Shown here one piece after another: positions 7,131 through 62,803 of a stretch of 64,000 nucleotides of DNA (the first letter of the stretch is position 1; each line of letters opens with the position of its first letter). Under the pieces are notes generated by a model. The model saw only the letters and a program-made list of their open reading frames with translations, searched no databases and had not been told where the DNA came from. The translations under genes were made by a program, and so were the position numbers. The DNA is from Bacteroidota bacterium (lineage in GTDB: Bacteria > Bacteroidota > Bacteroidia > Bacteroidales > WCHB1-69): the NCBI GenBank assembly GCA_037130365.1, contig JBAXTE010000003.1, forward strand, positions 15,458 through 79,457. The letters run 5' to 3'.

Positions 7131-7133
7131 ATT

Positions 7134-43060: not shown

Positions 43061-43076
43061 TGTACTTAATGTTAAT

Positions 43077-45290: not shown

Positions 45291-45313
45291 TTTCATTCTT
45301 AATTTAGATTCTT

Positions 45314-45904: not shown

Positions 45905-46005
45905 AAATAATGCCTAATTAGTGTCTGCGAAAGAAACAAAGAAGTATACATTTTAGCTTCGCTGAGCTCTCTGCCAGCTGGCGGATCAGTTCTTGAAAGT
46001 ACTAA

Positions 46006-47118: not shown

Positions 47119-47128
47119 CTTTTTTAAA

Positions 47129-47136
47129 CAAAGGTA
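47129..47136 (-). promoter_or_regulatory. Candidate -7 box TAnnTTTG (tacctttg on the minus strand) for the SPASM radical SAM gene
   Basis: Plus-strand caaaggta at 47129-47136, 10 nt upstream of the minus-strand ATG at 47118. Confidence 0.4.
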
Positions 47137-47167
47137 GAAAAAAGAAAGAAATCTTGCATTAATAATG

Positions 47168-47175
47168 TATATTTG
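47168..47175 (+). promoter_or_regulatory. Candidate -7 box TAnnTTTG (tatatttg) for the FAS-like operon
   Basis: 31 nt upstream of the ATG at 47206, back to back with the minus-strand box at 47129-47136. Confidence 0.4.
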
Positions 47176-47205
47176 CAACAGTCATTTCAAGATAATTTCG
47201 CATAA

Positions 47206-48009
47206 ATGAATTACAAAAATAACTTTTGGGCTTTTATTCTTGGTGGAACAGGTAGCTTTGGTTTAGCCACTGCAAAACTTTTAGCATCTAAAGGATTTAA
47301 TTTAATACTTGTTTATCGCGAAACAAAGGGAAATATTCAAAACCTTAATTCTGAGTTTGAGATATTGAAACAACAGTGTGATGTAATTCAGTTCAATTTA
47401 AACGCAAACGAACCCGAAAATCAAAATATTATCGTTGAAACATTACTTAAATATCCTGAAATAAAAAACAAAATATCTTTTTTGCTTCACGCCATTGCTG
47501 ATGGGAATCTCAGACCGTTATTTGCAAATAATGAGGATTCAATTGAAGAGCTAAACATAGAAGACTTTCACCATACAATTAAATCTATGGGAACAAGCTT
47601 GTATCTATGGACACAACTTTTATTTAAAAATGATTTTTTTGCAGAAAATTCTTCTGTTCTAGGGCTAACTAGTGAAGGTTCTACTCGGTTTTACAATAAT
47701 TATGCAGCGGTGGCATCTGCAAAGTCAGTAATGGAATCTAATATGCGATATATTGCAGTTGAATTAGCAAAATATGGTATTAGAGCAAATCTTTTAAATG
47801 TGGGCATTACTGATACCCCAGCGCTTAAGTCTTTTCCCGATTATAAATTATTTATTGATAGGGCAAAAGAGAGAAATCCAGCAAAGCGTCTCACAACTCC
47901 AGAGGATGTTGCAAAGGTAATTGCATTTATGGCTTCAGGTGATTCTCAATGGATAAATGGGACGATTATTACTGTTGATGGTGGAGAACAATTAATAAGT
48001 CTTTATTAA
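47206..48009 (+). CDS. FabL-like enoyl-[acyl-carrier-protein] reductase (SDR with Y-x6-K)
   Basis: LGGTGSFGLA glycine motif and YNNYAAVASAK (a Y-x6-K catalytic dyad as in FabI/FabL, not YxxxK). The C-terminal half (RYIAVELAKYGIRANLLNVG..TDTPALKSFP...NGTIITVDGGEQL) closely follows the FabL pattern as I recall it. Confidence 0.7.
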   Translation: MNYKNNFWAFILGGTGSFGLATAKLLASKGFNLILVYRETKGNIQNLNSEFEILKQQCDVIQFNLNANEPENQNIIVETLLKYPEIKNKISFLLHAIADGNLRPLFANNEDSIEELNIEDFHHTIKSMGTSLYLWTQLLFKNDFFAENSSVLGLTSEGSTRFYNNYAAVASAKSVMESNMRYIAVELAKYGIRANLLNVGITDTPALKSFPDYKLFIDRAKERNPAKRLTTPEDVAKVIAFMASGDSQWINGTIITVDGGEQLISLY

Positions 48010-48449
48010 TGGAAATATCCGATAAAATTATTCAAGCTTTGCCGTATGGTAATACTTTTCGTTTTGTAGATTCAATTGAACGAGTTGATGAGGATACCAT
48101 TATCGGCAACTATACTTATAAAGAAGATTTGCCATTTTACCATTCGCATTTTCAAGGAAATCCAATAGTCCCAGGTGTTATCATTATTGAGACTATGGGC
48201 CAAATCGGAATGGTTTGTCACCTAATTTATCTATCAAATGATTATTCATTATCCACTCTGCCATTACTTTCAAATTTGGAGGCAGAGTTTTATTGTAACG
48301 CAAATTACAATGAACCTATTAAAGTAATTGGACGAAAAATTTATTTTAGGCGAAACATTCTAAAATCATCGATTGAAATGAGAAAGCTAGACGATACTCT
48401 CATCGCCACACTAACTGCATATATATCCAAAATGCCAAAATGCCAATGA
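48009..48449 (+). CDS. FabZ/FabA-like 3-hydroxyacyl-ACP dehydratase (hot-dog fold)
   Basis: The motif YHSHFQGNPIVPGVIIIETMGQ matches the FabZ active-site region (HF...P..PGV...E...Q). Confidence 0.85.
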   Translation: MEISDKIIQALPYGNTFRFVDSIERVDEDTIIGNYTYKEDLPFYHSHFQGNPIVPGVIIIETMGQIGMVCHLIYLSNDYSLSTLPLLSNLEAEFYCNANYNEPIKVIGRKIYFRRNILKSSIEMRKLDDTLIATLTAYISKMPKCQ

Positions 48450-49723
48450 ATAAACGAGTAGTAATCACAGGGATAGGAGTTGTAGCTCCGGGAAGTGTTG
48501 GTGTTGTTGAATTTAATAACCAATTAATAAATGCAATATCGGGTATAAAAAATATTCCTGATATGAAAAACTTTAATTTTAATTGTCAGGTTGGTGGTAT
48601 TTGTGAAATTGATAGTGAAGCAATAAAAAAACAATTTCCTCAATTTCAAATACCAATCATTAGTCGAAGTACATTATTGCTAGCTCTTTCATGCAAAGAG
48701 GCACTTTTAGACTCAGGTTTAATCACTTTAAATCATGATTATTCCCAGTATTTGAATTATGACCTAATAATTGGATCAACTATAAGTTCAGCTGATATTT
48801 GGGGGGAATATATTATACCTATGGTTGATAAACAAAAGCATCTCCGATTGGGTAGTAGTGCATTCGAACAAATAATTAATTCAAGTCCTACAGCAATGAT
48901 TGCAGAGATTTATGGATTAACTGGCAGAACAATATCTACTTCATTGGCATGTGCAAGTAGTACTGAAGCGATAATTGAAGCTGCAAATAAAATTAAATAT
49001 GAAAATAAGGAAATCGTAATTGCTGGTGGAGTTGAACCGTATTCTAAATATTATTGGGGTACTATGGACGCAATGAAAATAATTAATCCAAACCATAATA
49101 ATCAACCAGATAAAGCTATTAGACCTATGAGTGAAAGTGCAAATGGATTTGTGCCTTCTGAAGGTAGCGGAATAATTATTCTTGAAGAATATAATCATGC
49201 AAAAAAGCGAAATGCAAAAATTTATGGTGAAATAATAGGAAGCCATATTAATTGCGGAGGAGGAAGAAATGGGGGAAGCATGACGGCTTCTAATAAAGAT
49301 ATGCTTAGAAAATGTATTTTTGAAACTATCCAAAACTCAAATATTAGCGCAAGTGAGATTGATTTAATATCTGGCCATTTAACTGCTACAAAAGCTGATT
49401 CTGCCGAAGTTAATGCATGGAATATTGGGCTTAATTTTCCGAAAAAATTTCCGTATATCAATTCAACGAAATCATTAATTGGTCACACATTAGGTGCTTG
49501 TGGAGTAATTGAAGTGATAGCTATAATTTTGCAAATGAAAGGGAAGTACATTCATGCATCCATAAATTGTGAGGATATTCATCCTTTAATTTCGGAAAAA
49601 ATATCTCAAAAATGTGTGCCTCAAAAAACAATTCACAATATTGATATACAGTATGCTATAAAGGCAAATTTTGGATTTGGAGATGTAAATGCCAGCTTAA
49701 TAATAAAAAACTTAAATGAATAA
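48440..49723 (+). CDS. Beta-ketoacyl-ACP synthase (FabF/FabB-like KS) 1
   Basis: RVVITGIGVV. Active-site Cys in LACASS, His in SGHLTATKAD and STKSLIGHTLGACG. C-terminal FGFGDVNASLI. Confidence 0.9.
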   Translation: MPMNKRVVITGIGVVAPGSVGVVEFNNQLINAISGIKNIPDMKNFNFNCQVGGICEIDSEAIKKQFPQFQIPIISRSTLLLALSCKEALLDSGLITLNHDYSQYLNYDLIIGSTISSADIWGEYIIPMVDKQKHLRLGSSAFEQIINSSPTAMIAEIYGLTGRTISTSLACASSTEAIIEAANKIKYENKEIVIAGGVEPYSKYYWGTMDAMKIINPNHNNQPDKAIRPMSESANGFVPSEGSGIIILEEYNHAKKRNAKIYGEIIGSHINCGGGRNGGSMTASNKDMLRKCIFETIQNSNISASEIDLISGHLTATKADSAEVNAWNIGLNFPKKFPYINSTKSLIGHTLGACGVIEVIAIILQMKGKYIHASINCEDIHPLISEKISQKCVPQKTIHNIDIQYAIKANFGFGDVNASLIIKNLNE

Positions 49724-50993
49724 TAGGGTTGTTATTACGGGAATCGGAGTCATCTCTCCTAATGGAATTGGTAAAAATTCCTTTGTAAACTCTATAAGGG
49801 GGGGGGTATCAGGAATAAGAAATATTCCTGATATGGAAAAACATAATTTACTATGTCATATCGGAGGTGTTCCCGAAATAAACTGGAATGATTATAATTC
49901 ATTTTTTGCAGAAAATGAATTGCTAGATGCCGATATTTCAATAAAGTATGGAGTCCTTTCAGGCATAGAAGCATGGAGGGATGCTGGATTAGAAATTAAT
50001 GACACCAAAAACATTGACACTCTTACTGACTGCGGGGCTATCATTGGAACTACTTTTGGTGGAATAGAGGTTTTTATTAGAAAAATATTACCCCTTGTTG
50101 ACACTGGAAACTTTAGAAAATTAGGAAGTCAAATTATGGAGCATTTTATGCCAAGTGGAACATCAGCGGCACTTTCTAAAATATTAGCATTATCAAATAT
50201 TAATTCATCAAATTCTTCAGCTTGCTCTACAGGACTAGAAGCAATATATTTTTCATATCAACACATCAAAAACAATAAAGCGAAACTTATGATGACTGGT
50301 GGTACTGATCTATATTCGTCATATTGCTGGGCAGGTTTCGACTCTATGAGAGTTTTAAATCGATCATCTAACAATAACCCATCTATTGGGAGCAGACCAA
50401 TGAGTGCCACTGCAAGTGGATTTGTGCCAGCAGCTGGCTCAAGTGTGTTAATACTTGAAGAATTAGAACATGCCATTGAACGAAACGCACCGATATATGC
50501 AGAAATTGTTGGAGCAAGTGTTAATTCTGGTGGCCAACGAAACGGTGGATCTATGACCTTCCCAAACCCTAAGCGTGTAATTGATTGCATTCAGGATTCA
50601 ATTCACCAAGCCAATATTAAAGGAGATGATATTAACCTAATTTGTGGACATTTAACTGGGACCAAGGCCGATTCAATTGAAATTAATAATTGGGTTGCAG
50701 CTTTGAATCTTAGTAATAACATTCCATATATTAATTCTTTAAAGTCGATGACAGGTCATTTAATCGGGGCTGCTGGTGCATTAGAAACTGCAGCTGCTGT
50801 TTTACAACTCCATCACGATTTTGTCCATCCATCTATTAATAGTGAAGATCTTCACCCTGAAATTGCCAAGCTTATTCCTCGCGAAAAAATCCCGCTTAAA
50901 ATTATTGAAAATGCTGGACTAAAATATATCGCAAAAGCAAGCTTTGGATTTGGTGATGTGAATTCCTGTATAATTTTGAAAAAATATGAGTAA
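49716..50993 (+). CDS. Beta-ketoacyl-ACP synthase (FabF/FabB-like KS) 2
   Basis: RVVITGIGVI. Cys retained in SACSTG, His in CGHLTGTKAD and LKSMTGHLIGAAG. It is therefore not a Cys-less chain-length-factor type. Confidence 0.9.
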   Translation: MNNRVVITGIGVISPNGIGKNSFVNSIRGGVSGIRNIPDMEKHNLLCHIGGVPEINWNDYNSFFAENELLDADISIKYGVLSGIEAWRDAGLEINDTKNIDTLTDCGAIIGTTFGGIEVFIRKILPLVDTGNFRKLGSQIMEHFMPSGTSAALSKILALSNINSSNSSACSTGLEAIYFSYQHIKNNKAKLMMTGGTDLYSSYCWAGFDSMRVLNRSSNNNPSIGSRPMSATASGFVPAAGSSVLILEELEHAIERNAPIYAEIVGASVNSGGQRNGGSMTFPNPKRVIDCIQDSIHQANIKGDDINLICGHLTGTKADSIEINNWVAALNLSNNIPYINSLKSMTGHLIGAAGALETAAAVLQLHHDFVHPSINSEDLHPEIAKLIPREKIPLKIIENAGLKYIAKASFGFGDVNSCIILKKYE

Positions 50994-51021
50994 TTTTGCT
51001 CTATCATAAATACCAAAAATT

Positions 51022-51264
51022 ATGGACGAAAATAAGAATAAAGTTATCGAGATTCTTAAAAAGTATACTTTTAATGAATCTGTTTGGGATAACTATACTG
51101 AAAACTCAAAAATCATTGTTGATTTAAAAATCAATTCTGCCCGAATTGTTGATATAATTCTAGATGTTGAGGATGAATATGGGATCGTTATTGACGATTA
51201 TTTGCTCGAAAAACTAATTACGATTAAAGATATATTGGATATTATTGAACAAAAAAGAAAATAA
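51022..51264 (+). CDS. Acyl carrier protein (phosphopantetheine-binding)
   Basis: 80 aa and acidic. DLKINSARIVDIILDVEDEYG corresponds to the DLG.DS....E helix-II region, with the Ser as the attachment site. Confidence 0.7.
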   Translation: MDENKNKVIEILKKYTFNESVWDNYTENSKIIVDLKINSARIVDIILDVEDEYGIVIDDYLLEKLITIKDILDIIEQKRK

Positions 51265-51341
51265 CGAATATTTTAAAATCGTTGTTTTACTGCATTTAAA
51301 CTACATTTTTTGTTGTCTTTTGTCTGCTAATATTAATTCGA

Positions 51342-52304
51342 ATGGGAACACCTATTTTAAGTATCGGAATCATCTCTTATAATCAAGCTGAATTTATCGA
51401 AAAAGCGATTAATTCGGTTATGGCACAGCAAACCCAATATCCTTTTGAGTTGATTATTTGTGACGATGCATCAGAAGACAATACCGACGACATTGTCAAT
51501 GGATTATTGCGAGGGGTTAGCTTTTCCACACAATATGTCAGAAACAAAACTAGAAAAGGGCCACTTTTAAACGGTAAAAACTTCATAAAACATGCTTCTG
51601 GAAAGTATCTTTGCTGGATGGATGCCGATGATTATTGGTGCTATGAAAATAAAATTCAAAAACAAATTGACTTTTTAGAATCCAATTTAGATTATAATGG
51701 TTGCTTTCATGATGCCAAAATAATCTCGGATATTGAGATAAACGAAGATCTTTCTGAGCAATTGAAGGAACAAACACATGGTAGATGGAAAAGTTATTCG
51801 CAGTTTAATACGTATCAATCCGACTTTTATCCTTGGGATGTATTACAGCGCAAAATTATTCCAACGGCTTCATTAATGATTCGGAATAGGGATTTAAACC
51901 ATTTCCTCGAAAAGCATTTAGATGTAAATTTATCTGTTAGTTGGGCATTACATTTAGAGCTAATAAAAAATAGTAAGTTTAAGTATTTCAACGAATTATG
52001 GTCGGTTTATTTTGATCATGCCAAAGGCTTTTCAAAGAGTATCGACCTAGTTACTTTTAAACTAAATAATATTCAAATTTTATTCAAATTATTAGATGAT
52101 GCGTATTATAGTGCCTTAAAAAAAGATGTTTATCGAGCCATTGCTAACGAGTACTACTTTTTACTTCATAGCGCTGAAGCACAAAAACGAAGTACTAAAG
52201 AGTATCGAGATTATTGCAAGGCCTATACAAAATGGGCTGATAAGGCTACCAAAGAAGATGTTGAAAGATTTAAAACCACTCATAAACTTAAAAACCAACA
52301 GTAA
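51342..52304 (+). CDS. Glycosyltransferase family 2
   Basis: LSIGIISYNQAEFIEKAINSV...ELIICDDASEDNT and a later DADD motif. Confidence 0.85.
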   Translation: MGTPILSIGIISYNQAEFIEKAINSVMAQQTQYPFELIICDDASEDNTDDIVNGLLRGVSFSTQYVRNKTRKGPLLNGKNFIKHASGKYLCWMDADDYWCYENKIQKQIDFLESNLDYNGCFHDAKIISDIEINEDLSEQLKEQTHGRWKSYSQFNTYQSDFYPWDVLQRKIIPTASLMIRNRDLNHFLEKHLDVNLSVSWALHLELIKNSKFKYFNELWSVYFDHAKGFSKSIDLVTFKLNNIQILFKLLDDAYYSALKKDVYRAIANEYYFLLHSAEAQKRSTKEYRDYCKAYTKWADKATKEDVERFKTTHKLKNQQ

Positions 52305-54092
52305 ATGTGTGGAATCCTCGGGAAAGTAAGTTTTAATGCACCGATTGATCAAGATGAGTTTGTTGCTCAGCGAGATACAATGACTTCTAGAGGCCCGAAT
52401 CAAGAAGGGTTGTATTTTAATTCCGCCAAAAAAATTGCTCTTGGATATCGCCGATTAAGTATCAATGATTTAAGCGAATTAGGCAATCAGCCTATTTCTA
52501 ACGAGGACTCAACAATCTTTTTAATATGTAATGGCGAAATATATAATTCACCCAAGTTAAAGGAAGAACTTATTAAATTAGGTCACCATTTTAAAAGTCG
52601 CTCAGATGCAGAAGTTATCATTCATGGATACGAAGAGTGGGGAACAGAAATTCTAAAAAGAGTTGAAGGCATGTTTGCTTTTGGAATATGGGATTCAAAA
52701 AAAGATGAACTAATCGTTGCCAGAGACAGATTTGGCATAAAACCACTTTATTTCGAAAGTAATGATGAAAGTTTCACCTTTGCATCTTCACTTAACGCTA
52801 TTATTACGGCAAAAAATCATCACAAAAAGTTAGATTTTTCATCCATTTGCGATTATCTAACGTATCGTTATGTACCTTCGCCAAAAAGTATTTATCAAGG
52901 AATCTGCAAACTCGAGCCCGCTCAATTTTTGGTATTAACTGCTCAAAAAAAGGTTCAAATTCAATATTATTGGGCAATAGAGTACAAACCTATAAAAATG
53001 TCACCCGCTGAGGTTCAGAAACAATTTGAGCATTTATTACGACAATCGGTACGCAAACATTTAATGAGCGACGTGCCCGTAGGTTCCTTTTTGAGCAGTG
53101 GCTACGATTCATCTACGTTGGCTTTATTGATGACCGAAGAAAATTATCAGCCTCAAACATTTAGTTTAGGGTTTTCTAATTGGGAAGAAAGTGAACATTT
53201 GATTGCGCAAAAAACGGCCGATATATTAAAACTCAATAATCATTCGTTGATCATTGATTTTAAGGATTTTATACCCGAAAACTTTATCGATGCATACGAT
53301 GAACCTATTGCTGATATTTCTACAATACCCACTTTTTGCATCAGTAATTTTGCGTCAAAGAAAGTTAAAACAGTTTTTTCGGGCGAAGGAGCAGACGAAC
53401 TTTTAGGCGGGTATGATTGGCATCGTAAAATAATGCAAAAGTACAATCAACGATCAATTTCTGATAGGTTATTTAGAGATTTTAATCCTACAGCAATCGA
53501 AATTTATAAGGAGTATATGGCGATGGGCAAATTTGACCGTGATGAATTACTAAAACTCTTTTCCCCAGAGCACCATTATCAAATTCCCGAAAATCCGTAT
53601 TGGTTTTTTGAGCAAAGTTTTAGAAAAGATTTGCCTTTATTAAAGGCGATTCAATATATGGATATCAGGGGCTTTATGGGGGAGTTAGTACTTAGTAAAA
53701 TTGACCGCTCAAGTATGGCACATTCCCTAGAAGTTAGAGTCCCATACTTAGACTATGACTTATTTGATTTTTTGTTTAATCTTGAGCCAGATGCTTATTT
53801 CTCGTTAGTGGAACAAAAAAAACTTCTTGTAAACCTTCTCAAACCCAAACTGCCACATGTTGTAAATCGCAAAAAACAAGGATTTGTAGGACCTAACGAA
53901 TATTACAATCGAGTAGAATTATATAAGGATATTCTTAAAAACTCTAAATTAGAAGATCTCGGTATTCTAAATAAGAAGTATTTATTACAATTATTTTCCA
54001 ACAATGATATGTGGAGAATTTGGAAATTAGTACTTTTGGAGTTATGGCTACAACATAATTTTGGCTCAAACAGTTCGTTAAAATCAAACTAA
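52305..54092 (+). CDS. asnB: Asparagine synthase (glutamine-hydrolysing) family amidotransferase
   Basis: N-terminal nucleophile MCGI, GNQP, the RGPD-like RGPNQEG, and a PP-loop-like FLSSGYDSS in the synthetase domain. Confidence 0.85.
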   Translation: MCGILGKVSFNAPIDQDEFVAQRDTMTSRGPNQEGLYFNSAKKIALGYRRLSINDLSELGNQPISNEDSTIFLICNGEIYNSPKLKEELIKLGHHFKSRSDAEVIIHGYEEWGTEILKRVEGMFAFGIWDSKKDELIVARDRFGIKPLYFESNDESFTFASSLNAIITAKNHHKKLDFSSICDYLTYRYVPSPKSIYQGICKLEPAQFLVLTAQKKVQIQYYWAIEYKPIKMSPAEVQKQFEHLLRQSVRKHLMSDVPVGSFLSSGYDSSTLALLMTEENYQPQTFSLGFSNWEESEHLIAQKTADILKLNNHSLIIDFKDFIPENFIDAYDEPIADISTIPTFCISNFASKKVKTVFSGEGADELLGGYDWHRKIMQKYNQRSISDRLFRDFNPTAIEIYKEYMAMGKFDRDELLKLFSPEHHYQIPENPYWFFEQSFRKDLPLLKAIQYMDIRGFMGELVLSKIDRSSMAHSLEVRVPYLDYDLFDFLFNLEPDAYFSLVEQKKLLVNLLKPKLPHVVNRKKQGFVGPNEYYNRVELYKDILKNSKLEDLGILNKKYLLQLFSNNDMWRIWKLVLLELWLQHNFGSNSSLKSN

Positions 54093-54138
54093 CTATGCTC
54101 AAGAAGAAACTTTGTACATCTTTATTAAGACTTGGAAT

Positions 54139-55530
54139 ATGATGAGGGCAATTCAAAAAACCATCAATAAGTTAATATTTAAATGTCGGCTTAAAGAATA
54201 CAATAAAACTAGAAATAATGGCAATGTGATCTTTTGCTATGCCCCTTCAAAAGCATTGAGATTTTCGCTTAACGGACATGCTTTTGTTTGTTGTTTTAAT
54301 AGATTAAATTCACTTGGAAGATATCCGATCAATTCAATATCAGATATTTGGAATAATTCAATTAAAGAAGATTTACATAAATCAATAAATTATAAACAAA
54401 ACAATACTCTTGGTTGCCATTATTGCTACGATACAATAATGAGTAAGAGTTTTCATCTTACGGGTGCTAGAAATTATGACAATTATAATAATGAAGTAAC
54501 AAGTAATTATCCTTTATTAATTGATTTTGAACTTAGCAATACGTGTAATCTAAAATGCATCATGTGTAATGGAGAAAACTCAAGTAGCATTCGAAGTCAG
54601 ATTGAAAACAAAGACAACTACCCCAATTATTACGATGATTACTTTTTAGAACAATTAACCGAATTTATCCCATATTTAAAAGAAACCAGATTTTCTGGAG
54701 GAGAACCATTTTTAATTGATTTATATTATGATTTATGGGATAAGATACACAGCATAAACCCTTTATGCAAAATAATAATTCAAACAAATGGTACTATTAT
54801 TAATGAAAAGATACTAGAACTCTATTCGAAATACAACTTTCATTTATCATTTTCTATCGATTCTGTGAATAAAACCACATACGAGTCCATTCGAATTGGT
54901 GCTTCATTTGAAAAAGTAATGAGCAATTTCGAAATCATACATAAGTTATCACAAAAATTAAATCGTGAAATCGGTGTAAGCATTTGTATATTAAAAAACA
55001 ATATTCGTGAATTTAGAGATTATGTAAATTACTTTAATAATTTGAACACAAAAATCACGATTCATAAAGTATTAACTCCAATTAATCATAGTATATATTC
55101 ACTATCAATTTCTGAATTAGAATCCATAAAAAAAGATTTTATCAGTTACAAGTTCACTTCTAAAAATTCTATTGAAGAGTGGAATAACAAACTTTTCAGT
55201 AGTGTAGTATTTTTTATTGAATCGGTTTTAAAGCTAAAAAAAGCAAATGATTCAAATAAGGAAATTCAAACCAGTAAAAACAGTAGAGCGGCATTTATAT
55301 CAATAATACAAAGGGTAATAAATGATAATGTTAGTGCCATTCCTAAAGAAATACTTATTGAAAAAATCGAGGAGTTAATTTTAAATATTGATAAAATTCA
55401 AAATTCAAAAGAAGTCTATGATAACATTATACATCTTCCGGATGAATACATAATATCAGAACTAAACATAAACGATATTGATCGGATTATAAGTCGAATT
55501 ACTGCAAATAAAAATCATAAGAATGATTGA
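54139..55530 (+). CDS. Radical SAM protein with N-terminal twitch/SPASM-like Cys motif (paralog 1)
   Basis: N-terminal CYAPSKALRFSLNGHAFVCC...IWNNSIKEDL...GCHYC, followed by the core SNTCNLKCIMCNG (CX3CX2C). ATG at 54139 preferred over the TTG at 54112. Confidence 0.8.
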   Translation: MMRAIQKTINKLIFKCRLKEYNKTRNNGNVIFCYAPSKALRFSLNGHAFVCCFNRLNSLGRYPINSISDIWNNSIKEDLHKSINYKQNNTLGCHYCYDTIMSKSFHLTGARNYDNYNNEVTSNYPLLIDFELSNTCNLKCIMCNGENSSSIRSQIENKDNYPNYYDDYFLEQLTEFIPYLKETRFSGGEPFLIDLYYDLWDKIHSINPLCKIIIQTNGTIINEKILELYSKYNFHLSFSIDSVNKTTYESIRIGASFEKVMSNFEIIHKLSQKLNREIGVSICILKNNIREFRDYVNYFNNLNTKITIHKVLTPINHSIYSLSISELESIKKDFISYKFTSKNSIEEWNNKLFSSVVFFIESVLKLKKANDSNKEIQTSKNSRAAFISIIQRVINDNVSAIPKEILIEKIEELILNIDKIQNSKEVYDNIIHLPDEYIISELNINDIDRIISRITANKNHKND

Positions 55531-56902
55531 AAAATTTCACAAAAATAGATTGATTACAAAATACAAAAAGATAAGAGAGCAGCCCGATGCTCCTATTTGT
55601 TTGGCCCCTTTTAATTCGCTTTTTTTTGCCCCTTACGGAAGAATTATGTCTTGTTGGTATAATAAAAGAGAGCCCTTAGGCAATTATCCAGAAAATTCGA
55701 TTCAAGAAATTTGGTTTGGAGAAAAACTTGAAAACTTAAGAAAACATTTGCTTAAATACGATTTCTCACAAGGATGTGAAGTTTGTTATGCACATTTAAA
55801 AAAGAAAAACTTTTATTCTGTAGATGCAAATAGATACGATTATTTAGCCCAAGGTGATGGCAATCATCCTTCCTCTTTTGAGTTTCAGATTAGCCACCAA
55901 TGCAACTTTGAGTGCATTATGTGCAATGGTGAACTATCTTCGGGTGTAAGGCAAAATAGGGAAATGATGGATATGTACAAAAATCCTTACGACGAAAATT
56001 TTGTGATTCAACTATTGCCATATTTGCCATATCTTAAGGATGCTGCTTTTTCGGGTGGGGAACCTTTTTTAAATAAAATATATTTTGATATTTGGGAACA
56101 TTTAGCACAATTAAATCCAGAGGTAAAAATATCATTAACCACAAACGGGAGTATATTAAATGCTAAGGTAAAAGAGTATTTGAACAAATTGAAGTTTAAT
56201 ATTTCAATCTCTATCGACTCTCTGAATGAGGAGAATTATTCCTTAATTCGAAAAAATGGTGACTTGCAAAAGATGTTGGATAATTTTCAATATTTTTTAT
56301 CATACACCCGAGAAATAGGCACTTCTATGTCTATTAAAACCTGTCCGATGAAGCAAAATATTTTTGAAATACCTCTCATTTTAGAATTTGCCAACACACA
56401 AAATGTCCCAGTTTTTTTTAACACTGTAATTTATCCTCCTAATTGCACTTTAATCAACCAAAAATCAGAGAAATTGAAGGAGCAAATTATATTTCTTAAG
56501 TCTTATACATTCGATAATTCAGAAAATAAATGTGGTAATTTTAATCGATATTTTGCTTTAATACAACAAATTGAAGGGTGGTACGAGGATTCAATAATTC
56601 GCGAGAAGAACTATAAAAATTCAGTATTGAATTATGAGTACTTTATGAAAGTAGTAATTAAGAATGTTGCTCTATTTGTCAACGAGAATTCCGATTTCCC
56701 CGCAAAAGTAAAGAACCTTAAAATTATGTATTATAAAGACTTTTTAACTGAGGTTTTTGACTTAATTGTTGAAGAGCAAACAAAACTGTCAGCAGTTAAA
56801 TACCTATCCGAAATACCAATTTTTAGATTGTTATCAGAAATTGAATTTCGAGATCCACAACGATTAGCAGACCGACTTATTTATTCAAATTATAATGATT
56901 AG
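55523..56902 (+). CDS. Radical SAM protein with N-terminal twitch/SPASM-like Cys motif (paralog 2)
   Basis: CLAPFNSLFFAPYGRIMSC...IWFGEKLENLRKHL...GCEVC, then SHQCNFECIMCNG. Collinear with the preceding ORF (FSGGEPFL, TNG.I.N, SIDS motifs shared). 8-nt overlap. Confidence 0.8.
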   Translation: MIEKFHKNRLITKYKKIREQPDAPICLAPFNSLFFAPYGRIMSCWYNKREPLGNYPENSIQEIWFGEKLENLRKHLLKYDFSQGCEVCYAHLKKKNFYSVDANRYDYLAQGDGNHPSSFEFQISHQCNFECIMCNGELSSGVRQNREMMDMYKNPYDENFVIQLLPYLPYLKDAAFSGGEPFLNKIYFDIWEHLAQLNPEVKISLTTNGSILNAKVKEYLNKLKFNISISIDSLNEENYSLIRKNGDLQKMLDNFQYFLSYTREIGTSMSIKTCPMKQNIFEIPLILEFANTQNVPVFFNTVIYPPNCTLINQKSEKLKEQIIFLKSYTFDNSENKCGNFNRYFALIQQIEGWYEDSIIREKNYKNSVLNYEYFMKVVIKNVALFVNENSDFPAKVKNLKIMYYKDFLTEVFDLIVEEQTKLSAVKYLSEIPIFRLLSEIEFRDPQRLADRLIYSNYND

Positions 56903-56940
56903 ATAGATTTTTTTACTTAAGATATTAATAATCAAAAATT

Positions 56941-58311
56941 ATGAGATTTTGTGTACTCAATATTCCAAATGATAAAAAAATTATTCGCAAATACTCATGC
57001 TCTTACTATGCCAACGGCTTTTTATATCCACCAATCGAATTATTAAGAGTTGCAACAATTATAAAAGAAAGAGTCTCCATAAATAACGAGATTTTATTTT
57101 TAGATGCAATTGCAGAGAACTTAAACGAAAAAAGATGCATTAAACAAATTATTGAATTTGCTCCTGATTATCTTATAACATTAATATCAGTTGACTTTAG
57201 TAATTCTGAAAAAAGCTTCATTGCCAATTTAAAAAAAATATTTGAGGTAAAAGTTATAGCGATTGGATATTTGCCAGATTTGTATCCTCAATGTTTTCCT
57301 GTATTTGATGTGATTTTAGGTTCTGATTTTGAAAGCAGATTTTTTAAGGTTTTAGATAAAGAAAAAAATGATGATTTTTTAAACAAGCTAAAAATTGCAA
57401 CTGAACCCAATGTGTTTAATGCTGATATTATTAAAGGATGTGACTATTCTTTTTTGAATTCAAAAAATTATTATGAATTTTTAGCCAATGGAAAAACTGC
57501 ATTTACCTATTTTTCATTTGGTTGCCCCTATAAATGCTCTTATTGTATCAGAACCTATAATTTGGACTCGGTGTTTTTTAGAAATACTAAAAGCATTTTG
57601 GATGAACTTAGTTTCTTTGACTCCAAAGGATATTCGAATGTACGAATAATGGACGATAACTGCACATTAAGTAAGTCATTATTAAACGAGATAAAAGATT
57701 ATTGTGAACAAAATATGCTCCATTTTAATTTTTATGGACTCACCCGAATTGATTTAATAGATGATGAAATTGTCGAAATTTTAAAGAAATTAAATTTTAA
57801 ACGAATTTTTATTGGGATTGAATCTTTTGATATTCATAGAATAAATGAATATCGAAAGGGTAAATATATTGATTTAAAAATTGTTAAGGATAAAATTAAT
57901 AAATTAGTTAAATCCGGGATTGAAGTAGGAGTATTTTTGCTGTTTAATCCTTTAAATGAGGATTGGACATCTGTAAAAAAATCTCTCAAAATTTTAAAAT
58001 CATTACCAATTCAACATGCTGGAATTTCGTATCTAGTCCCTTATCCTGGAACATCATATTATGAGGATAATTATGAGAACATTCGAATGGAGTTTAGTCC
58101 AGATTATTCAATAAAGTATAAAGTTAAAAATCACTCATTAAATATTCTAACTCAGTATTACTTCTATATTATGTTTTATTTATTTAATAGGAAAAGGGTT
58201 CTTAAGTCTTTTGGGCATTTATTATTCTATCCAAAACAAATAATCACGATTATAGTCAATTTGTTTTTTCGTTTTTTTAAAGGGAAAAGAGAGAGAATAG
58301 ATTTTTCATAG
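56941..58311 (+). CDS. B12-binding-domain-type radical SAM protein with hydrophobic C-terminal tail
   Basis: The N-terminal YPPIELLRVATIIKE...FLDAIAE...PDYLITLIS pattern resembles cobalamin-binding domains. The core is FSFGCPYKCSYC (CX3CX2C). The C-terminus YYFYIMFYLF...IITIIVNLFF is hydrophobic. Confidence 0.65.
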   Translation: MRFCVLNIPNDKKIIRKYSCSYYANGFLYPPIELLRVATIIKERVSINNEILFLDAIAENLNEKRCIKQIIEFAPDYLITLISVDFSNSEKSFIANLKKIFEVKVIAIGYLPDLYPQCFPVFDVILGSDFESRFFKVLDKEKNDDFLNKLKIATEPNVFNADIIKGCDYSFLNSKNYYEFLANGKTAFTYFSFGCPYKCSYCIRTYNLDSVFFRNTKSILDELSFFDSKGYSNVRIMDDNCTLSKSLLNEIKDYCEQNMLHFNFYGLTRIDLIDDEIVEILKKLNFKRIFIGIESFDIHRINEYRKGKYIDLKIVKDKINKLVKSGIEVGVFLLFNPLNEDWTSVKKSLKILKSLPIQHAGISYLVPYPGTSYYEDNYENIRMEFSPDYSIKYKVKNHSLNILTQYYFYIMFYLFNRKRVLKSFGHLLFYPKQIITIIVNLFFRFFKGKRERIDFS

Positions 58312-58315: not shown

Positions 58316-59785
58316 TTATTTTTTCATATAAATTTTAATACCATAGTATTGTTCATATGAGTTTACCCAAAGTTGATCTTCATTATTAGGACTTAGTTTT
58401 ACATTGTCTGTTATTGAATAGGGTAAGTCGTAGATGGTTTCTAAAAATACTGAATCTTGCTTTTTATCTTTTGCTTCTTGTATGCTTGTGTACCTTTTAT
58501 TCATTTTATTATCATATGATTGAATTCTTCCACTGCTCCAATCCAAAATTAGGTTCATTGGCGTTGAATGTAAAAAAAACAAGAAAGAGATTGCTAGTGG
58601 AATGTAAATATTAAATGCTTTACTTGGGATGATCACATTTGTATTCAGGTATTTAGGGTGGATTTGAATAGTTTCTATAAATAATAGACCTGAGATATTT
58701 ATAATCAGATAAAATAATTGAGCAGTGTTTTGCATTCTTGTAGGGAAATTATTTAAGGTTATAGTATCATGAAACGGCAGAATATAAGTAACATTCGTAA
58801 GACAAATAGTTAATAATGAAATGGGTAATAGAACTAATGGACCCAATAAAAGAATTTTTAGACTTATTTTTTTATGAATTAATATGCTTATTAAGAAGGG
58901 TAAGAGAAACAAATATGGAGCTAACTTTATCCACTGAATCAATAAAAACAAAGAGTAATTAAACGATATGCCAATTGATTTAAGTATAATGCCGAAATCA
59001 AATAATTTATTAAAATTCATTTCTCTATCTAACCCTACTCCAGGGGATGAAATTGAAAAAATTGAGAACGAAAAACAAAAGATAAAAAGAATGATGCTGT
59101 CCATTCTTAGATGAGATTTCTTAAGCAAAAATATCGAATAAATTAAGAAAATAAATATTGTAATGTTTGTGAAAACTAAATTCATTTCATTCATCCCGAT
59201 AGAGATAATTTCCAATATGATTATTAATATTAGATAAAATAAATTGTTTTTTTGATTTGTAATAACCATTAGTCTAAAGATGGATCCAATCATTAGTAGG
59301 ATAATGGATGCGGAAAATCCATATACGATTCCACCTGGACAAAGAAACATAAAATACTTTAAATCAGGAATTATTGCTGAATAACATGCCGTAAACAATA
59401 TACTTAATTCAAAGGTCAATAGCTTGTCCGTTTTTTGAATAAGTTTAAAAATACTCGAAAAAAAGTAATAGGCAGAGCTGATAAAAAAAAACAAGAAAAA
59501 AAGTGCGGAAACAAATTGGTATTCGGGCTTAGACCATACTGGAGGAATGAAGCCATGAAGTAAATTGGTCATGTATCTACCGTCATAAATGATATATTGA
59601 TCCACAGCTGCATTAATAATTCCTGCATGTATAGATTTATTTGCTTTAAATAAATCCTCGCCGTTTGGATGAGCATAAAAGGATGTATATGCTAATAACA
59701 AAATATACAAAATAGGGATAACTAAAATTGCCAAATGTCCGTTTTTGTATAAAAAAATTGCAATGTGATTTCTTGTGTTTTTCAT
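58316..59785 (-). CDS. Polytopic membrane protein (about 12 TM), putative GT-C-type glycosyltransferase or polymerase; paralog of 60752-62803
   Basis: Shares HPNGEDL / FPNVEDL, YDGRYMTNLLHGF / FDGRYFTNFLHGL, and the C-terminal soluble tail W.SG....Y...MN.RY..I..AK with the 683-aa protein. Confidence 0.45.
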   Translation of the reverse strand: MKNTRNHIAIFLYKNGHLAILVIPILYILLLAYTSFYAHPNGEDLFKANKSIHAGIINAAVDQYIIYDGRYMTNLLHGFIPPVWSKPEYQFVSALFFLFFFISSAYYFFSSIFKLIQKTDKLLTFELSILFTACYSAIIPDLKYFMFLCPGGIVYGFSASIILLMIGSIFRLMVITNQKNNLFYLILIIILEIISIGMNEMNLVFTNITIFIFLIYSIFLLKKSHLRMDSIILFIFCFSFSIFSISSPGVGLDREMNFNKLFDFGIILKSIGISFNYSLFLLIQWIKLAPYLFLLPFLISILIHKKISLKILLLGPLVLLPISLLTICLTNVTYILPFHDTITLNNFPTRMQNTAQLFYLIINISGLLFIETIQIHPKYLNTNVIIPSKAFNIYIPLAISFLFFLHSTPMNLILDWSSGRIQSYDNKMNKRYTSIQEAKDKKQDSVFLETIYDLPYSITDNVKLSPNNEDQLWVNSYEQYYGIKIYMKK

Positions 59786-60201
59786 TAATCTGTTGTTATC
59801 ATAAAATTGGAATATGTTGAGTCTGTTGATATTAAACTAAAGTATCTACGAATATTGGTTTTTTTATCGCAAATTACAACTCCATAGTGAATCTGTCCGT
59901 TTTCGTAACCTATTCCTGAAAAATAATAAAATCCATACTTAAAAGCTTCTCCAATTTCCTTAATTGAATACGATTGTTTGGGCTCTAAATATTGTGACCC
60001 ATTAAAAAAAGCATGGATTTGCTCAACCTTTTCATGATTTGGTTTTATGGTGTCATTGTTCATTGAGTCAGATGTTTGTTTCAAATAAAACCGAATTTCA
60101 TAGTTCTTAATTGCAATATGACTAGCCCAAAAAAACAGGACAATTGATAATACTAATAATAGGTATTTTGTTTTAATAATAATTCCATTCCTTAGTTCCA
60201 T
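59785..60201 (-). CDS. Small membrane-anchored hypothetical protein
   Basis: Single N-terminal TM (YLLLVLSIVLFFWASHIAI). Its stop overlaps the start of the downstream gene. Confidence 0.5.
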   Translation of the reverse strand: MELRNGIIIKTKYLLLVLSIVLFFWASHIAIKNYEIRFYLKQTSDSMNNDTIKPNHEKVEQIHAFFNGSQYLEPKQSYSIKEIGEAFKYGFYYFSGIGYENGQIHYGVVICDKKTNIRRYFSLISTDSTYSNFMITTD

Positions 60202-60240
60202 GATGTAAATTATATGTATTTATACTTATTTCATTATTAA

Positions 60241-60765
60241 TCAGATGAATATACTAGTTGGACGAATAATTGGGCTTATTTTTTTAAAAAATTCACCAAT
60301 TCCAAAAATTCTACGAATTAATACATTTTCGTCATTGATAATTATTTCGAATGTTATTACAATGTTGTGTGAACAGGATAGTAAAATTGAAAAATTTTCA
60401 GTATTTGACAAATTGTTTATTGAATAAAAAGAGGTAGGGAAAAGCTTAATAGTGTTGAAAATAAAAAATAAAAAATTATTCAATTCAATTTTATTAGGAG
60501 TTTTCGATGTAAAGAAAAGATTTGTGCATGATGAATCAACTTCATTTTTCTTAAATTCTTCAATTATGTTATAATACAACAAAGTAGTATCATCAATAAT
60601 GGATAAATCATCAGGGTTGTTACACGTTAATATTTTAGACATTAAGGAGTTTATATGGTTAAATGAAGTTGATACTTTTTTCACATATAATGAAAGGCAA
60701 ATTAAACAACAAGTTGCTAAAACAGTATAGATAATTGTGAAAATACAAAATTTATTTCTTGACAT
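60241..60765 (-). CDS. Small membrane-anchored hypothetical protein
   Basis: Single N-terminal TM (FCIFTIIYTVLATCCLICLSL). Its start overlaps the stop of the upstream 683-aa ORF. Confidence 0.5.
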   Translation of the reverse strand: MSRNKFCIFTIIYTVLATCCLICLSLYVKKVSTSFNHINSLMSKILTCNNPDDLSIIDDTTLLYYNIIEEFKKNEVDSSCTNLFFTSKTPNKIELNNFLFFIFNTIKLFPTSFYSINNLSNTENFSILLSCSHNIVITFEIIINDENVLIRRIFGIGEFFKKISPIIRPTSIFI

Positions 60766-62803
60766 ATTTCAAAATTGAATTTATTTTACAGATTGTATCA
60801 TTTTTGATTTTTATTTCATCAACATTAAAATAATTTTCATATGCAATATTCCAAAACTCCTCAAATCTATTCGGCTCAATGTCTGGTTTGGTATATATTG
60901 TAGTGGGTTTGTGTTTAATGCTTTCGAGTTCAACAGAACTCCAAATTGTGTTTTGTTTAGCTTTTAATATTGCTGAATACCTATTGTTCATTTCAGTTTT
61001 ATACCCGTCAAATTCACCAGATGACCATTCTGTTATTATTGTTTTGAAGTTGTTTTTATAAAAAGCGAGATGACACAGAACTAATAAAGATGATAACGTT
61101 ATTGCTATTGCTCTATGATTTTTAGTAATAATCCTTATGTTTTTGACTTTTTTTATAATGAATATTGGTAATAAAATAAATATTGCTACCTGAAAAATCC
61201 AATTCATAAAATTATAAATCCGCTCAGGGTAGTATTCAACACCCATTGGAATAAAAAAAGAAAACGGTAAAAGAAAAATCAACAGGAAGCAACATAAAAA
61301 AAGAGATATGATACTTCGATTTGAAAATCTCAGAAATGGATTAATGTCTTTGTGAAATATACTTGTAAAGATTATGAAGAGTGGAATAGTGAAAATATTA
61401 CTGAACAACCAGTCGTAAGTTGTTTTTAGTGTATAAATTGACCCTGAATTAATAACATCAATATAATAATTCAAATTTCTTGAAACACCTGAATTAATAC
61501 GATATTGAATACCCGGTGAGCTGATGAATATATAAATGCAACATAAAGAAATAAAAACAAAGGGAATAATATCAATTATACTCGATTTATGGTATCTCCA
61601 TGTGTAAATTATAAAATAGAATAATGCTATAGAATTTATAATAATCATCATTTCATTTATTCCATAACTGAATATTAGAAATGCAAAAGCTGAAATAAAA
61701 TAAAGGAATTTGTAACCATATTTTTTTTCATTTATCATTAATTTCAAAAAGCTTGTCCAAATTAACAAAAAATTCCATGCCCAAAGATAAACGAAACTAC
61801 TGGCCATCCAATAAATATCATGAACGATTGAAGGTGTAATCGCAAAATGTATAGTGATAAATAATGAAGGAAAAATAATAATAGACCAACTTTTCTTTGT
61901 AAAAAAAGAAAATGAAAAAACAAAAAAAATATGTGATAAATATGTTAGAATAATTGAAAAAATTAAAACAAATTTGTAGGATTCTAATCCCCAATAGACT
62001 ATTGGGGATAAACCGTGAAGAAAGTTTGTAAAATATCTGCCATCAAAAGTAGCTAAAGTCTGAACAGTGCCATTAATTATAGTTGTCTTCATTGCAACAA
62101 CGACTAAGGATAAGTCCTCTACATTAGGAAAGCTGAAAAAGGTAGGTAATATTATACAAAATAGCCCAAAAACTAAAATAACAACAAGCGCATATTTGTT
62201 AAAAATTGCCAGAATATGTAATCTAATTATTAGATATGCCAGACTTAGGACTAACGCAATCAGAAAAAATATTTTGAAATGTTCAATATTTGTTTTCAAT
62301 ACAGAAAATATTTTATTAACAAGATTGTTCTGTCCGATATTATTTCCAACAATAATTATGGACGTATCAGACAGGTTAGATTTAAGTGAATAGTTTTCTG
62401 TTGAATTTAGATTTTTAACATTAATTTGTAGCGGATGATTTTCAATAATGTTAACATTTGACTTTACTATAATTTCTTTATAATAGCCGCTGTTAATTTT
62501 CCAAGCATTTGAATTTGAATCAAATGGGATTAATACTTCTTTACATAAAGGCTCAATTCCAATAACAAAAAAATTGTTTTTTTTTTCTTTGTCTATGGTA
62601 TTAATAGTTATACAAATTGGCTCATAAATCGTTATCCTAGATAAATAGAGGAAAGTCAATAATGATGTGATTAAAAAAAATGTGGCAGAAAAGAAATAAA
62701 TTTGCTTTTTAGAGCACTTTTGTCTCGACAAAATATAATTGGCAATTCCCTTATTTGCCAAATATTCAATTATTGTTTTTTGAAAAGCAGTTAATTTATG
62801 CAT
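60752..62803 (-). CDS. Polytopic membrane protein with extra N-terminal extracytoplasmic domain; putative GT-C-type glycosyltransferase or polymerase
   Basis: See the paralog at 58316-59785. The N-terminal roughly 190 aa (TM + domain with WKINSGYYKEI) resembles the N-terminus of the SGNH protein at 31272. Confidence 0.45.
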   Translation of the reverse strand: MHKLTAFQKTIIEYLANKGIANYILSRQKCSKKQIYFFSATFFLITSLLTFLYLSRITIYEPICITINTIDKEKKNNFFVIGIEPLCKEVLIPFDSNSNAWKINSGYYKEIIVKSNVNIIENHPLQINVKNLNSTENYSLKSNLSDTSIIIVGNNIGQNNLVNKIFSVLKTNIEHFKIFFLIALVLSLAYLIIRLHILAIFNKYALVVILVFGLFCIILPTFFSFPNVEDLSLVVVAMKTTIINGTVQTLATFDGRYFTNFLHGLSPIVYWGLESYKFVLIFSIILTYLSHIFFVFSFSFFTKKSWSIIIFPSLFITIHFAITPSIVHDIYWMASSFVYLWAWNFLLIWTSFLKLMINEKKYGYKFLYFISAFAFLIFSYGINEMMIIINSIALFYFIIYTWRYHKSSIIDIIPFVFISLCCIYIFISSPGIQYRINSGVSRNLNYYIDVINSGSIYTLKTTYDWLFSNIFTIPLFIIFTSIFHKDINPFLRFSNRSIISLFLCCFLLIFLLPFSFFIPMGVEYYPERIYNFMNWIFQVAIFILLPIFIIKKVKNIRIITKNHRAIAITLSSLLVLCHLAFYKNNFKTIITEWSSGEFDGYKTEMNNRYSAILKAKQNTIWSSVELESIKHKPTTIYTKPDIEPNRFEEFWNIAYENYFNVDEIKIKNDTICKINSILKYVKK

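Follow-up and report, generated by a model that had tools for sequence, protein, structure and literature searches.

The auxiliary clusters of twitch and SPASM domains act as electron conduits in radical S-adenosylmethionine (SAM) enzymes such as BtrN and anSME, and most of the characterised SPASM/twitch enzymes work on peptides or proteins. BtrN, the 2-deoxy-scyllo-inosamine dehydrogenase of butirosin biosynthesis (4m7s/4m7t) and the defining twitch enzyme, carries a single four-cysteine auxiliary-cluster domain and takes a carbohydrate-type substrate for which no peptide is needed; its pathway includes a DegT-family aminotransferase. Here, we describe three consecutive radical SAM genes in a 64-kb stretch of contig JBAXTE010000003.1 from an uncultured Bacteroidota bacterium, the whole of which is referred to as the window. 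The first two, rSAM1 and rSAM2, encode proteins in which a predicted twitch domain lies before the radical SAM core, whereas in BtrN it lies after the core. The third, rSAM3, resembles AprD4, the radical SAM 1,2-diol dehydratase of apramycin biosynthesis (6fd2), the substrate of which is the amino sugar paromamine. We consider it about an even chance that the best overall explanation is correct, namely that the rSAM1/rSAM2 pair and a functionally separate, AprD4-like rSAM3 tailor a surface glycan; a role in glycan tailoring as such is highly probable. The literature describes SPASM and twitch domains as C-terminal (PMC9477430). For the genes upstream of the pair, the closest described system is the wfpC-G set of the Flavobacterium psychrophilum O-polysaccharide, for which a type II fatty acid synthesis (FAS-II)-like route to a 3,5-dihydroxyhexanoyl chain and its transfer to UDP-Qui2NAc4N was proposed (PMC6519341).

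The boundaries of the three open reading frames (ORFs; 463, 459 and 456 aa) are identical in the NCBI and Logan gene calls. They agree with a preliminary description of the window, as do the core motifs, which lie at residues 136, 127 and 195. NCBI labels the three products (MEI6346655, MEI6346656 and MEI6346657) 'radical SAM protein' only, and all of them match PF04055 well above its gathering score of 29.5 (68.1, 46.8 and 54.3 bits for rSAM1, rSAM2 and rSAM3, respectively). The first two genes have the following features, where AF2 denotes AlphaFold2:

54139–55530, plus strand: rSAM1, N-terminal-twitch radical SAM protein of 463 aa (MEI6346655.1, exact NCBI match; NF033640 E 3.9e-41; Pfam Radical_SAM aa 131–296, SPASM aa 33–96)
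54235–54426, plus strand: putative twitch domain of rSAM1, aa 33–96, with Cys 33, 51, 93 and 96 (Pfam, alignment)
54544–54567, plus strand: CX3CX2C motif of rSAM1 (CNLKCIMC, aa 136–143)
55090–55527, plus strand: C-terminal helical extension of rSAM1, aa ~318–463, no known domain
55523–56902, plus strand: rSAM2, N-terminal-twitch radical SAM protein of 459 aa (MEI6346656.1; NF033640 E 1.5e-43; AF2 pLDDT 92.7)
55598–55786, plus strand: putative twitch domain of rSAM2, aa 26–88, with Cys 26, 44, 85 and 88 (Pfam SPASM E 1.6e-8; BtrN alignment)
55901–55924, plus strand: CX3CX2C motif of rSAM2 (CNFECIMC, aa 127–134)
56465–56899, plus strand: C-terminal six-helix domain of rSAM2, aa ~315–459, conserved across the family, no Pfam or PDB match

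As had been proposed, rSAM1 and rSAM2 are tandem paralogs (36% identity over 302 aa, BLAST E 3e-67), and the start of rSAM2 overlaps the stop of rSAM1 by 8 nt (ATGATTGA). Their alignment ends around residue 319/310, from which it follows that the last ~150 aa have diverged past detection by BLAST. In rSAM1 the motifs run C33-x17-C51, DIW69 and C93-x2-C96, followed by CNLKCIMC at residue 136; in rSAM2 they run C26-x17-C44, EIW62 and C85-x2-C88, followed by CNFECIMC at residue 127. The cysteine pattern common to both is C-x17-C-x40/41-C-x2-C with CX3CX2C about 40 residues later, and both proteins have a GGE motif. Pfam SPASM matches precede the Radical_SAM match in both cases: the match in rSAM1 (E 1.5e-3) is under the gathering score and the one in rSAM2 over it, while the core starts at aa 131 and aa 123, respectively. 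Furthermore, a phmmer search of the PDB aligned rSAM2 aa 25–103 to the BtrN twitch residues 168–253, and the C-x17-C-x40-C-x2-C spacing of rSAM2 matches that of the aligned BtrN region. Outside this region the two proteins differ, since BtrN has 250–270 aa, lacks the extra helical domain of rSAM1 and rSAM2, and shows only marginal overall similarity to rSAM2 (E 1.7e-5). The position of the cysteine-rich motif ahead of the core was thus recognised correctly in the preliminary description; what was taken there for half a domain is, judging from these alignments, a complete four-cysteine twitch domain, as in BtrN.

All seven cysteines, four in the twitch and three in the core, are kept in 170–171 of 171 full-length homologs from 80 loci and are invariant or nearly so in a 40-sequence alignment, a degree of sequence conservation that is far beyond chance. 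With four cysteine ligands, the twitch site would therefore have no open coordination position. Each protein should bind two [4Fe-4S] clusters, a SAM-cleaving one on CX3CX2C and a fully cysteine-ligated auxiliary one on the twitch. The AF2 model of rSAM2 (pLDDT 92.7, pTM 0.91) places a twitch of a beta-hairpin plus helices ahead of the core, and a six-helix C-terminal domain behind it. The ~150-aa C-terminal extension without a recognisable motif, which had been reported for both proteins, is thus helical and confidently modelled; searches with its sequence found no match in Pfam or the PDB and no PqqD-like or RiPP recognition element (RRE)-like domain, where RiPP stands for ribosomally synthesised and post-translationally modified peptide. 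No transmembrane-grade hydrophobic segment was predicted in rSAM1, rSAM2 or rSAM3, and rSAM1 and rSAM2 are best read as soluble cytoplasmic enzymes.

The best NCBIfam match of both paralogs is NF033640, 'N_Twi_rSAM, twitch domain-containing radical SAM protein', after which we refer to such proteins as N-Twi. The scores of 141.4 bits (rSAM1) and 149.4 bits (rSAM2) fall short of the curated cut-off of 170 but lead the next-best families by more than 80 bits, and the alignments cover model positions 4–369 of 398. NF033640 is a subfamily model without an assigned function, and it shares with rSAM1 and rSAM2 the order of an N-terminal twitch followed by the CX3CX2C core. The reversal of the usual order noted earlier is therefore present in both proteins, but it had not gone unrecognised, as this model describes exactly that layout. 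Ten relatives scored 145–186 bits against NF033640; nine of them were under the cut-off (145–167), and only P0053, which is 37% identical to rSAM2 and is named after NF033640 by NCBI, passed it. Since nearly all tested relatives score under 170, the ~470-aa clade of rSAM1 and rSAM2, whose C-terminal helical domain extends past what the 398-position model covers, lies at the edge of the curated family, and the two proteins are best described, by their sequences, as a sister or edge clade of it. The sub-threshold scores and the longer C-terminal domain also explain why the NCBI pipeline PGAP assigns no more specific name. In short, the N-terminal-twitch layout is already catalogued, and rSAM1 and rSAM2 are new, slightly sub-threshold members of a biochemically unexplored family. 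At E <= 1e-30, a profile built from the N-Twi alignment hit 1,690 cluster representatives (clustering at 50% identity) in a set of 1.84 billion proteins, and at least 467 relatives were confirmed when one genome per GTDB species was scanned. Among the matches listed, most came from metagenome-assembled genomes (MAGs) of Bacteroidota (Bacteroidales, Chitinophagales, Flavobacteriales and Saprospiraceae), and others from Bdellovibrionota, Alpha- and Gammaproteobacteria and a Kuenenia MAG.

To describe the surroundings of the family, genes were called and clustered in 84 fetched loci; the counts that follow refer to 80 loci with 169 N-Twi genes unless another number is given. Because fused forms exist, UbiA, a DXD glycosyltransferase and an unknown protein of 399 aa fell into one group under single linkage, and these were re-typed by reference sequences. 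Next to an N-Twi gene on the same strand, a second N-Twi gene was found more often than any other kind of gene (88 adjacencies), and 44 of 78 loci held two to six full-length copies within 21 kb. Recurrent partners were UbiA-type prenyltransferases (23 loci), the 399-aa protein (22), SGNH proteins (21), AsnB-type amidotransferases (19–20), the O-antigen ABC transporter components Wzt (16) and Wzm (12), B12-binding radical SAM proteins, PhyH dioxygenases, CMAS-like methyltransferases and the DXD glycosyltransferase (16 each), and DegT aminotransferases (11); sulfotransferases and glycosyltransferases also adjoin N-Twi genes. The clades of paralogs follow one another in a set order from locus to locus, for instance as a '10+,14+,15-' triple in at least 11 loci, and they are therefore old, specialised orthologous groups rather than recent tandem copies.

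An rSAM1-type gene followed directly by an rSAM2-type gene, with stop and start overlapping or abutting, was found in L003, L004, L007, L008, L009 and L013. Identities to rSAM1 and rSAM2 were 47% and 68% in L007, 40% and 44% in L008, 42% and 42% in L009, 40% and 39% in L013, and 38% and 42% in L004; in L003 the adjacent genes encode 453 and 472 aa, the second product being 49% identical to rSAM2 (the first was not scored). The pair is best read as ancient and translationally coupled. Four proteins (P0207, P0208, P0213 and P0214) contain two complete N-Twi modules in a single chain. Five of the six paired loci (L004, L007, L008, L009 and L013) have no FAS-like gene at all; taken with the double enzymes fused in one chain, this speaks for a unit that is heteromeric or works in two steps. 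Other fusions join a sulfotransferase or UbiA to N-Twi, or N-Twi to a CBM_4_9 carbohydrate-binding module (CBM) and an SGNH domain; these domain combinations point to a carbohydrate or lipid-linked substrate. The preference for a carbohydrate or lipid substrate voiced in the preliminary description is supported by them and by the glycan locus. As a separate matter, an assignment of the halves of the fused double enzymes to the rSAM1 and rSAM2 types was tried and gave no clean correspondence.

The window as a whole is a surface-glycan locus, best read as a very large surface-polysaccharide locus of the O-antigen or capsule type. Its G+C content is ~30%. Nonulosonic-acid biosynthesis is represented by two NeuB proteins, a NeuC-type 2-epimerase, a CBS-nucleotidyltransferase, a CMP-transferase, DegT and a PglD-like gene. 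Further glycan genes encode a Wzx flippase, GT2, GT4 and GT9 glycosyltransferases, PIG-L and WbqC, and the window also holds two each of carbamoyltransferases, WbuX-type amidotransferase domains and CN-hydrolases, along with SGNH proteins and a DUF6056 protein that is GT-C-like. The genes rSAM1, rSAM2 and rSAM3 are the last three of a tightly packed ten-gene operon on the plus strand (47206–58311), in which they follow, in this order, a FabL-like short-chain dehydrogenase/reductase (SDR), a FabZ-like dehydratase (DH), two FabF-like ketosynthases (KS), an acyl carrier protein (ACP), GT2 and AsnB. Upstream of the operon lie dehydratase/epimerase, DegT and PglD-type acyltransferase genes and a divergent classical radical SAM/SPASM gene:

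43026–45904, plus strand: NDP-sugar 4,6-dehydratase/epimerase-like gene, DegT aminotransferase and PglD/NeuD-type N-acyltransferase
46006–47178, minus strand: a fourth radical SAM gene of the classical layout, with SPASM at the C-terminus behind the core (AhbD/NirJ-like); keeps synteny with the FAS-like set
47206–51264, plus strand: FAS-II-like set of FabL-like SDR, FabZ-like dehydratase, two FabF-like ketosynthases and ACP (family searches; precedent wfpC-F of F. psychrophilum, PMC6519341)
51342–52304, plus strand: GT2 glycosyltransferase of a conserved GT2-AsnB-N-Twi block
52305–54092, plus strand: AsnB-type glutamine amidotransferase, a recurrent N-Twi partner (TIGR01536 423 bits, cut-off 267)

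The block of DegT, the PglD-like gene and the FAS-like set plus GT2-AsnB-N-Twi recurs in L003, L036, L040, L069 and L079 at 50–77% protein identity. Like wfpC-G, the window combines two ketosynthases, an ACP, an SDR reductase and a PglD-type acyltransferase near dehydratase and aminotransferase genes; beyond wfpC-G it has the FabZ-like dehydratase, the radical SAM gene with a C-terminal SPASM, GT2, AsnB and the N-Twi pair, and the description of wfpC-G mentions no radical SAM genes (PMC6519341). The divergent radical SAM gene at 46006–47178 has AhbD/NirJ-like matches that are all under the cut-offs, and in L003, L014, L036, L040 and L069 it keeps strict synteny with the SDR, DH and KS genes and with the PglD-like acyltransferase. 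Its product may modify an acyl-ACP or an acylated sugar.

The features of rSAM3, and of the genes to which its relatives elsewhere are joined, are as follows:

56941–58311, plus strand: rSAM3, radical SAM protein of 456 aa with a class-B (AprD4/TsrM-like) fold (MEI6346657.1; Foldseek match to 6fd2; Pfam Radical_SAM only; AF2 pLDDT 91.9)
56941–57360, plus strand: N-terminal Rossmann-like (B12-binding-like) domain of rSAM3, aa 1–140 (alternating strands and helices in the model; distant full-length homologs with PF02310)
57523–57546, plus strand: CX3CX2C motif of rSAM3 (CPYKCSYC, aa 195–202)
58144–58278, plus strand: C-terminal aromatic/basic helices of rSAM3, aa 402–446, not transmembrane
36038–40066, minus strand: cassette of CN-hydrolase, WbuX amidotransferase and NodU-like carbamoyltransferase; elsewhere an rSAM3 ortholog lies directly 3'

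AprD4 was the best match of rSAM3 in both sequence (E 4e-5, 17% identity) and structure (Foldseek E 2.5e-18, TM-score 0.68 over 410 columns), followed by full-length fold matches to TsrM, MgmA, CysS, OxsB and TokK (TM-scores of the set 0.55–0.68). The model has the N-terminal Rossmann-type domain fused to the core that characterises the class-B fold, and AprD4, which has a comparable overall length, likewise combines a Rossmann-like N-domain with a core. The likeness is confined to structure: NF033070, the AprD4 family, gave 39.7 bits against a cut-off of 500, and the other NCBIfam matches (BchE, HpnR, HpnJ and others of class B) were also weak and far under their cut-offs. The B12-like domain of AprD4 does not bind cobalamin (PMC12931638), and the Pfam B12-binding model PF02310 found no match in rSAM3 or in homologs of at least 33% identity, whereas it did match more distant full-length homologs (24–29% identity). 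The initial view of rSAM3 as a B12-type enzyme thus holds at the level of the fold, but not for a Pfam-recognised cobalamin site. A membrane-associated tail, which had also been suggested, was not supported: the maximum Kyte-Doolittle 19-residue mean is 1.36, under the value of 1.6, and in the model the tail, which is conserved across the rSAM3 family, folds into three helices packed together (pLDDT, averaged over 10-residue blocks, 89–91 up to aa 440 and 71 for aa 441–450). A peripheral association with the membrane is conceivable.

Nor do the three genes form one unit, as had been assumed. In L085–L088 the orthologs of rSAM3 (42–50% identity) are the fourth gene of an operon that starts with a CN-hydrolase, a WbuX-type N-acetyl-sugar amidotransferase and a NodU-like carbamoyltransferase, and in three of these four loci the start of the rSAM3-type gene overlaps the preceding stop. 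The first three genes of that operon are present in the window (64–80% identity) on the minus strand at 40066–36038, 19 kb from rSAM3. Among the fetched N-Twi loci, an rSAM3-type gene directly follows an N-Twi pair only in L007, the closest relative. We therefore conclude that the radical SAM trio consists of two modules side by side. On the best reading, rSAM3 belongs functionally with the CN-hydrolase/WbuX/carbamoyltransferase cassette and has been relocated beside the N-Twi pair here. This context differs from that of AprD4, which belongs to an aminoglycoside cluster, and no AprD3-like partner of rSAM3 was identified. For the annotation of the window this means two modules instead of one, and the 'B12' and 'membrane' labels on rSAM3 should be softened or dropped. 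Within the cassette, the CN-hydrolase and PP-loop pair resembles a split glutamine-dependent NadE-type amidotransferase.

A mechanism compatible with this arrangement can be outlined. An N-Twi enzyme would cleave SAM reductively at the CX3CX2C cluster, and the resulting 5'-deoxyadenosyl radical would abstract hydrogen either from a sugar residue itself or from an N-acyl or amide group on it, the substrate being a glycan intermediate that is nucleotide-activated or linked to polyprenyl phosphate. Electron transfer in either direction between the substrate radical and the twitch cluster, which is fully ligated, could follow in the manner of BtrN or anSME, and the net outcome would be dehydrogenation to a keto sugar, or epimerisation. 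This specific dehydrogenase or epimerase chemistry, which is drawn from analogy, is tentative. rSAM1 and rSAM2 might act as a heterodimer or in two consecutive steps, their unmatched helical domain might bind the substrate, and AsnB might amidate a carboxylate carried by that sugar or by its acyl group. In the second module, the CN-hydrolase/WbuX/carbamoyltransferase cassette would amidate and carbamoylate a sugar, on which rSAM3 would then act by an AprD4-like dehydration or by methylation. A more far-reaching idea, which we regard as doubtful, is that N-Twi proteins constitute a dedicated family for 'glycan radical tailoring'. Ordered sets of two to seven paralogs, often with a class-B radical SAM protein, would work in the cytoplasm as heteromers or assembly lines on polyprenyl-phosphate-linked sugars or on finished polysaccharide. 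They would yield epimerised, keto/deoxy or cross-linked residues, with the permuted twitch and the helical domain serving substrate or partner recognition. If true, radical RiPP maturation would have an equivalent that acts on polysaccharides, is widespread in Bacteroidota and gives access to residues beyond the reach of ordinary NAD-dependent sugar enzymes. In Bacteroidota, surface glycans influence how sensitive the cells are to phages, how the immune system recognises them and how they adapt to a niche, and to our knowledge radical chemistry on sugars outside antibiotic pathways has barely been explored. N-Twi genes, which occur almost only in glycan loci, in ordered sets and fusions and with no peptide partner, thus offer a testable target for new carbohydrate radical reactions.

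Several observations weigh against glycan tailoring by the N-Twi pair, or at least against its details. The type of reaction is proposed because of an analogy with C-terminal-twitch enzymes and a fully ligated auxiliary site. Foldseek comparison of the rSAM2 model with the PDB returned the generic radical SAM core only (SkfB, viperin, BlsE, SuiB and MoaA, with TM-scores of 0.31–0.36), and it is therefore silent on the arrangement of N-terminal twitch, core and helical domain and on how the twitch is placed with respect to the active site. In the open literature searched, we found no functional study of an N-terminal-twitch family and no biochemical datum for a member of it, nor the phrase 'N-terminal twitch'. 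There is no universal partner (AsnB in ~25% of the loci, DegT in ~14%, ACP or KS in ~5–11%), and different paralogs may thus have different substrates; for some clades, the presence of UbiA, CMAS-like methyltransferase and PhyH partners in Chitinophagales loci suggests that the chemistry may concern lipids and not sugars. In the window, the pair lies downstream of the SDR, dehydratase, two ketosynthases and ACP within the same tight operon. It could therefore be thought to modify the acyl chain made by these genes, on the ACP or after N-acylation of an amino sugar, by desaturation, hydroxyl oxidation, cyclisation or C-C coupling, which would make the substrate lipid-like. Consistent with this, the ACP-GT2-AsnB-N-Twi block is syntenic in L036, L040, L069 and L079, O-antigen N-acyl chains from such gene sets are documented (PMC6519341), and lipid-type partners accompany some clades. 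However, across the family an ACP was found near N-Twi genes in only three to five loci and a KS in nine, and the rSAM1-type/rSAM2-type pair occurs without FAS-like genes in the five loci named above. The N-Twi fusions moreover involve CBM, sulfotransferase and SGNH domains and never ACP or acyltransferase domains, while the radical SAM gene that is strictly syntenic with the FAS-like set is the C-terminal-SPASM gene at 46006–47178 and not the N-Twi pair. We therefore regard acyl-chain modification by the pair as unlikely.

A role of the pair in the maturation of a RiPP or protein, with a peptide encoded elsewhere or too divergent to be noticed or with a neighbouring enzyme as an anSME-type substrate, appears very improbable. 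It would fit the known preference of SPASM/twitch enzymes, many peptide maturases appear among the secondary NCBIfam matches (E 1e-7 to 1e-14), one cluster member carries the JGI label 'sulfatase maturation enzyme AslB', and some neighbours are sulfotransferase-like. Those secondary matches, however, are far under the cut-offs and cover the core only, and the transporters in these loci are Wzm/Wzt or Wzx, with no protease, leader peptidase or peptide-export genes. The flanking gaps at 54093–54138, 56903–56940, 51265–51341 and 45905–46005 (46, 38, 77 and 101 nt) are too short for a precursor gene, in agreement with the preliminary description, and the only small gene nearby, 51022–51264, encodes the ACP. 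A conserved small peptide gene beside homologs was also looked for, among ORFs of 20–110 aa located at most 2.5 kb from an N-Twi gene and outside larger genes; of 513 such ORFs near the 169 homologs, no cluster occurred in more than two loci, and those few look spurious. With neither a precursor gene nor an RRE/PqqD-like domain, rSAM1 and rSAM2 do not group with RiPP maturases, and the early judgement that a RiPP role is unlikely stands. An anSME-type sulfatase maturase in particular was considered and rejected, the neighbours being PAPS-type sulfotransferases and not sulfatases. For rSAM3, a possible alternative to AprD4-like dehydration, though we do not favour it, is that of a cobalamin-dependent class-B C-methyltransferase with a carbon of a glycan sugar as its target. 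Besides AprD4, structures of TsrM, MgmA, CysS and TokK match the fold (TM-scores 0.60–0.67), the distant full-length homologs do have the Pfam B12-binding domain, and canonical B12-binding radical SAM genes abound in related loci. Against this stand the missing PF02310 match in rSAM3 and its closer homologs and the best match to AprD4, in both sequence and structure, a cobalamin-free enzyme (PMC12931638).

Two other arrangements of N-Twi genes were seen in the related loci. A Chitinophagales-type cassette recurs in fixed order in L035, L038, L041, L049, L057, L059, L064, L065, L070 and L077 (for example L059, 8393–17952). It comprises a CMAS-like methyltransferase, UbiA, sometimes AsnB, the 399-aa protein, the DXD glycosyltransferase and three N-Twi genes of distinct clades, with PhyH dioxygenase arrays and SGNH proteins on its flanks. 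The DXD glycosyltransferase is fused to the 399-aa protein in six loci, and in one locus there is a triple fusion with UbiA. The product of this cassette may be a prenylated glycolipid or glycan. A polyprenyl-phospho-ribose route with DprE-like epimerisation, suggested by the UbiA partners, was set aside as speculation, as these partners match generic prenyltransferase models only (E 1e-7 to 1e-11). An extreme density of radical SAM genes was found at 300–18787 of L004 (JGI 3300025308), where five canonical B12-binding radical SAM and four N-Twi genes lie with sulfotransferases within 19 kb; L010, L013 and L085 are also dense.

The remaining parts of the window contain further features of note. 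Downstream of rSAM3, and convergent with it, lies a block of membrane genes:

58316–62803, minus strand: a 489-aa polytopic protein, single-anchor proteins of 138 and 174 aa, and a 683-aa DUF6056/GT_STM0557_N (GT-C-like) protein

Family searches gave no match for the 489-aa, 138-aa and 174-aa proteins. Pairs of 174-aa and ~665-aa proteins like those of this block flank the rSAM3 cassette twice in L086, and the block suggests a periplasmic GT-C-type step of glycan modification. The non-coding gaps at 25387–26202 (816 nt) and 41680–42228 (549 nt) are unusually long for such a tightly packed locus; Rfam and tRNA scans of the window, these gaps included, found nothing. In a promoter and terminator scan, for which the sigma-70 consensus is unsuitable in Bacteroidota, promoter-like sites were rarer than in shuffled sequence and no terminator was informative. 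A 900-aa fusion protein encoded at 22684–25386 (plus strand) joins a GT4-type glycosyltransferase N-terminal region to a PP-loop domain (WbuX-like, ThiI/NAD-synthase-like), the latter being the second amidotransferase copy in the locus. Finally, a full nonulosonic-acid set of the legionaminic or pseudaminic type is located at 363–8120 (plus strand), with NeuB paralogs at 2136–3140 and 5343–6371; a cluster mate of the former carries the annotation N,N'-diacetyllegionaminate synthase.

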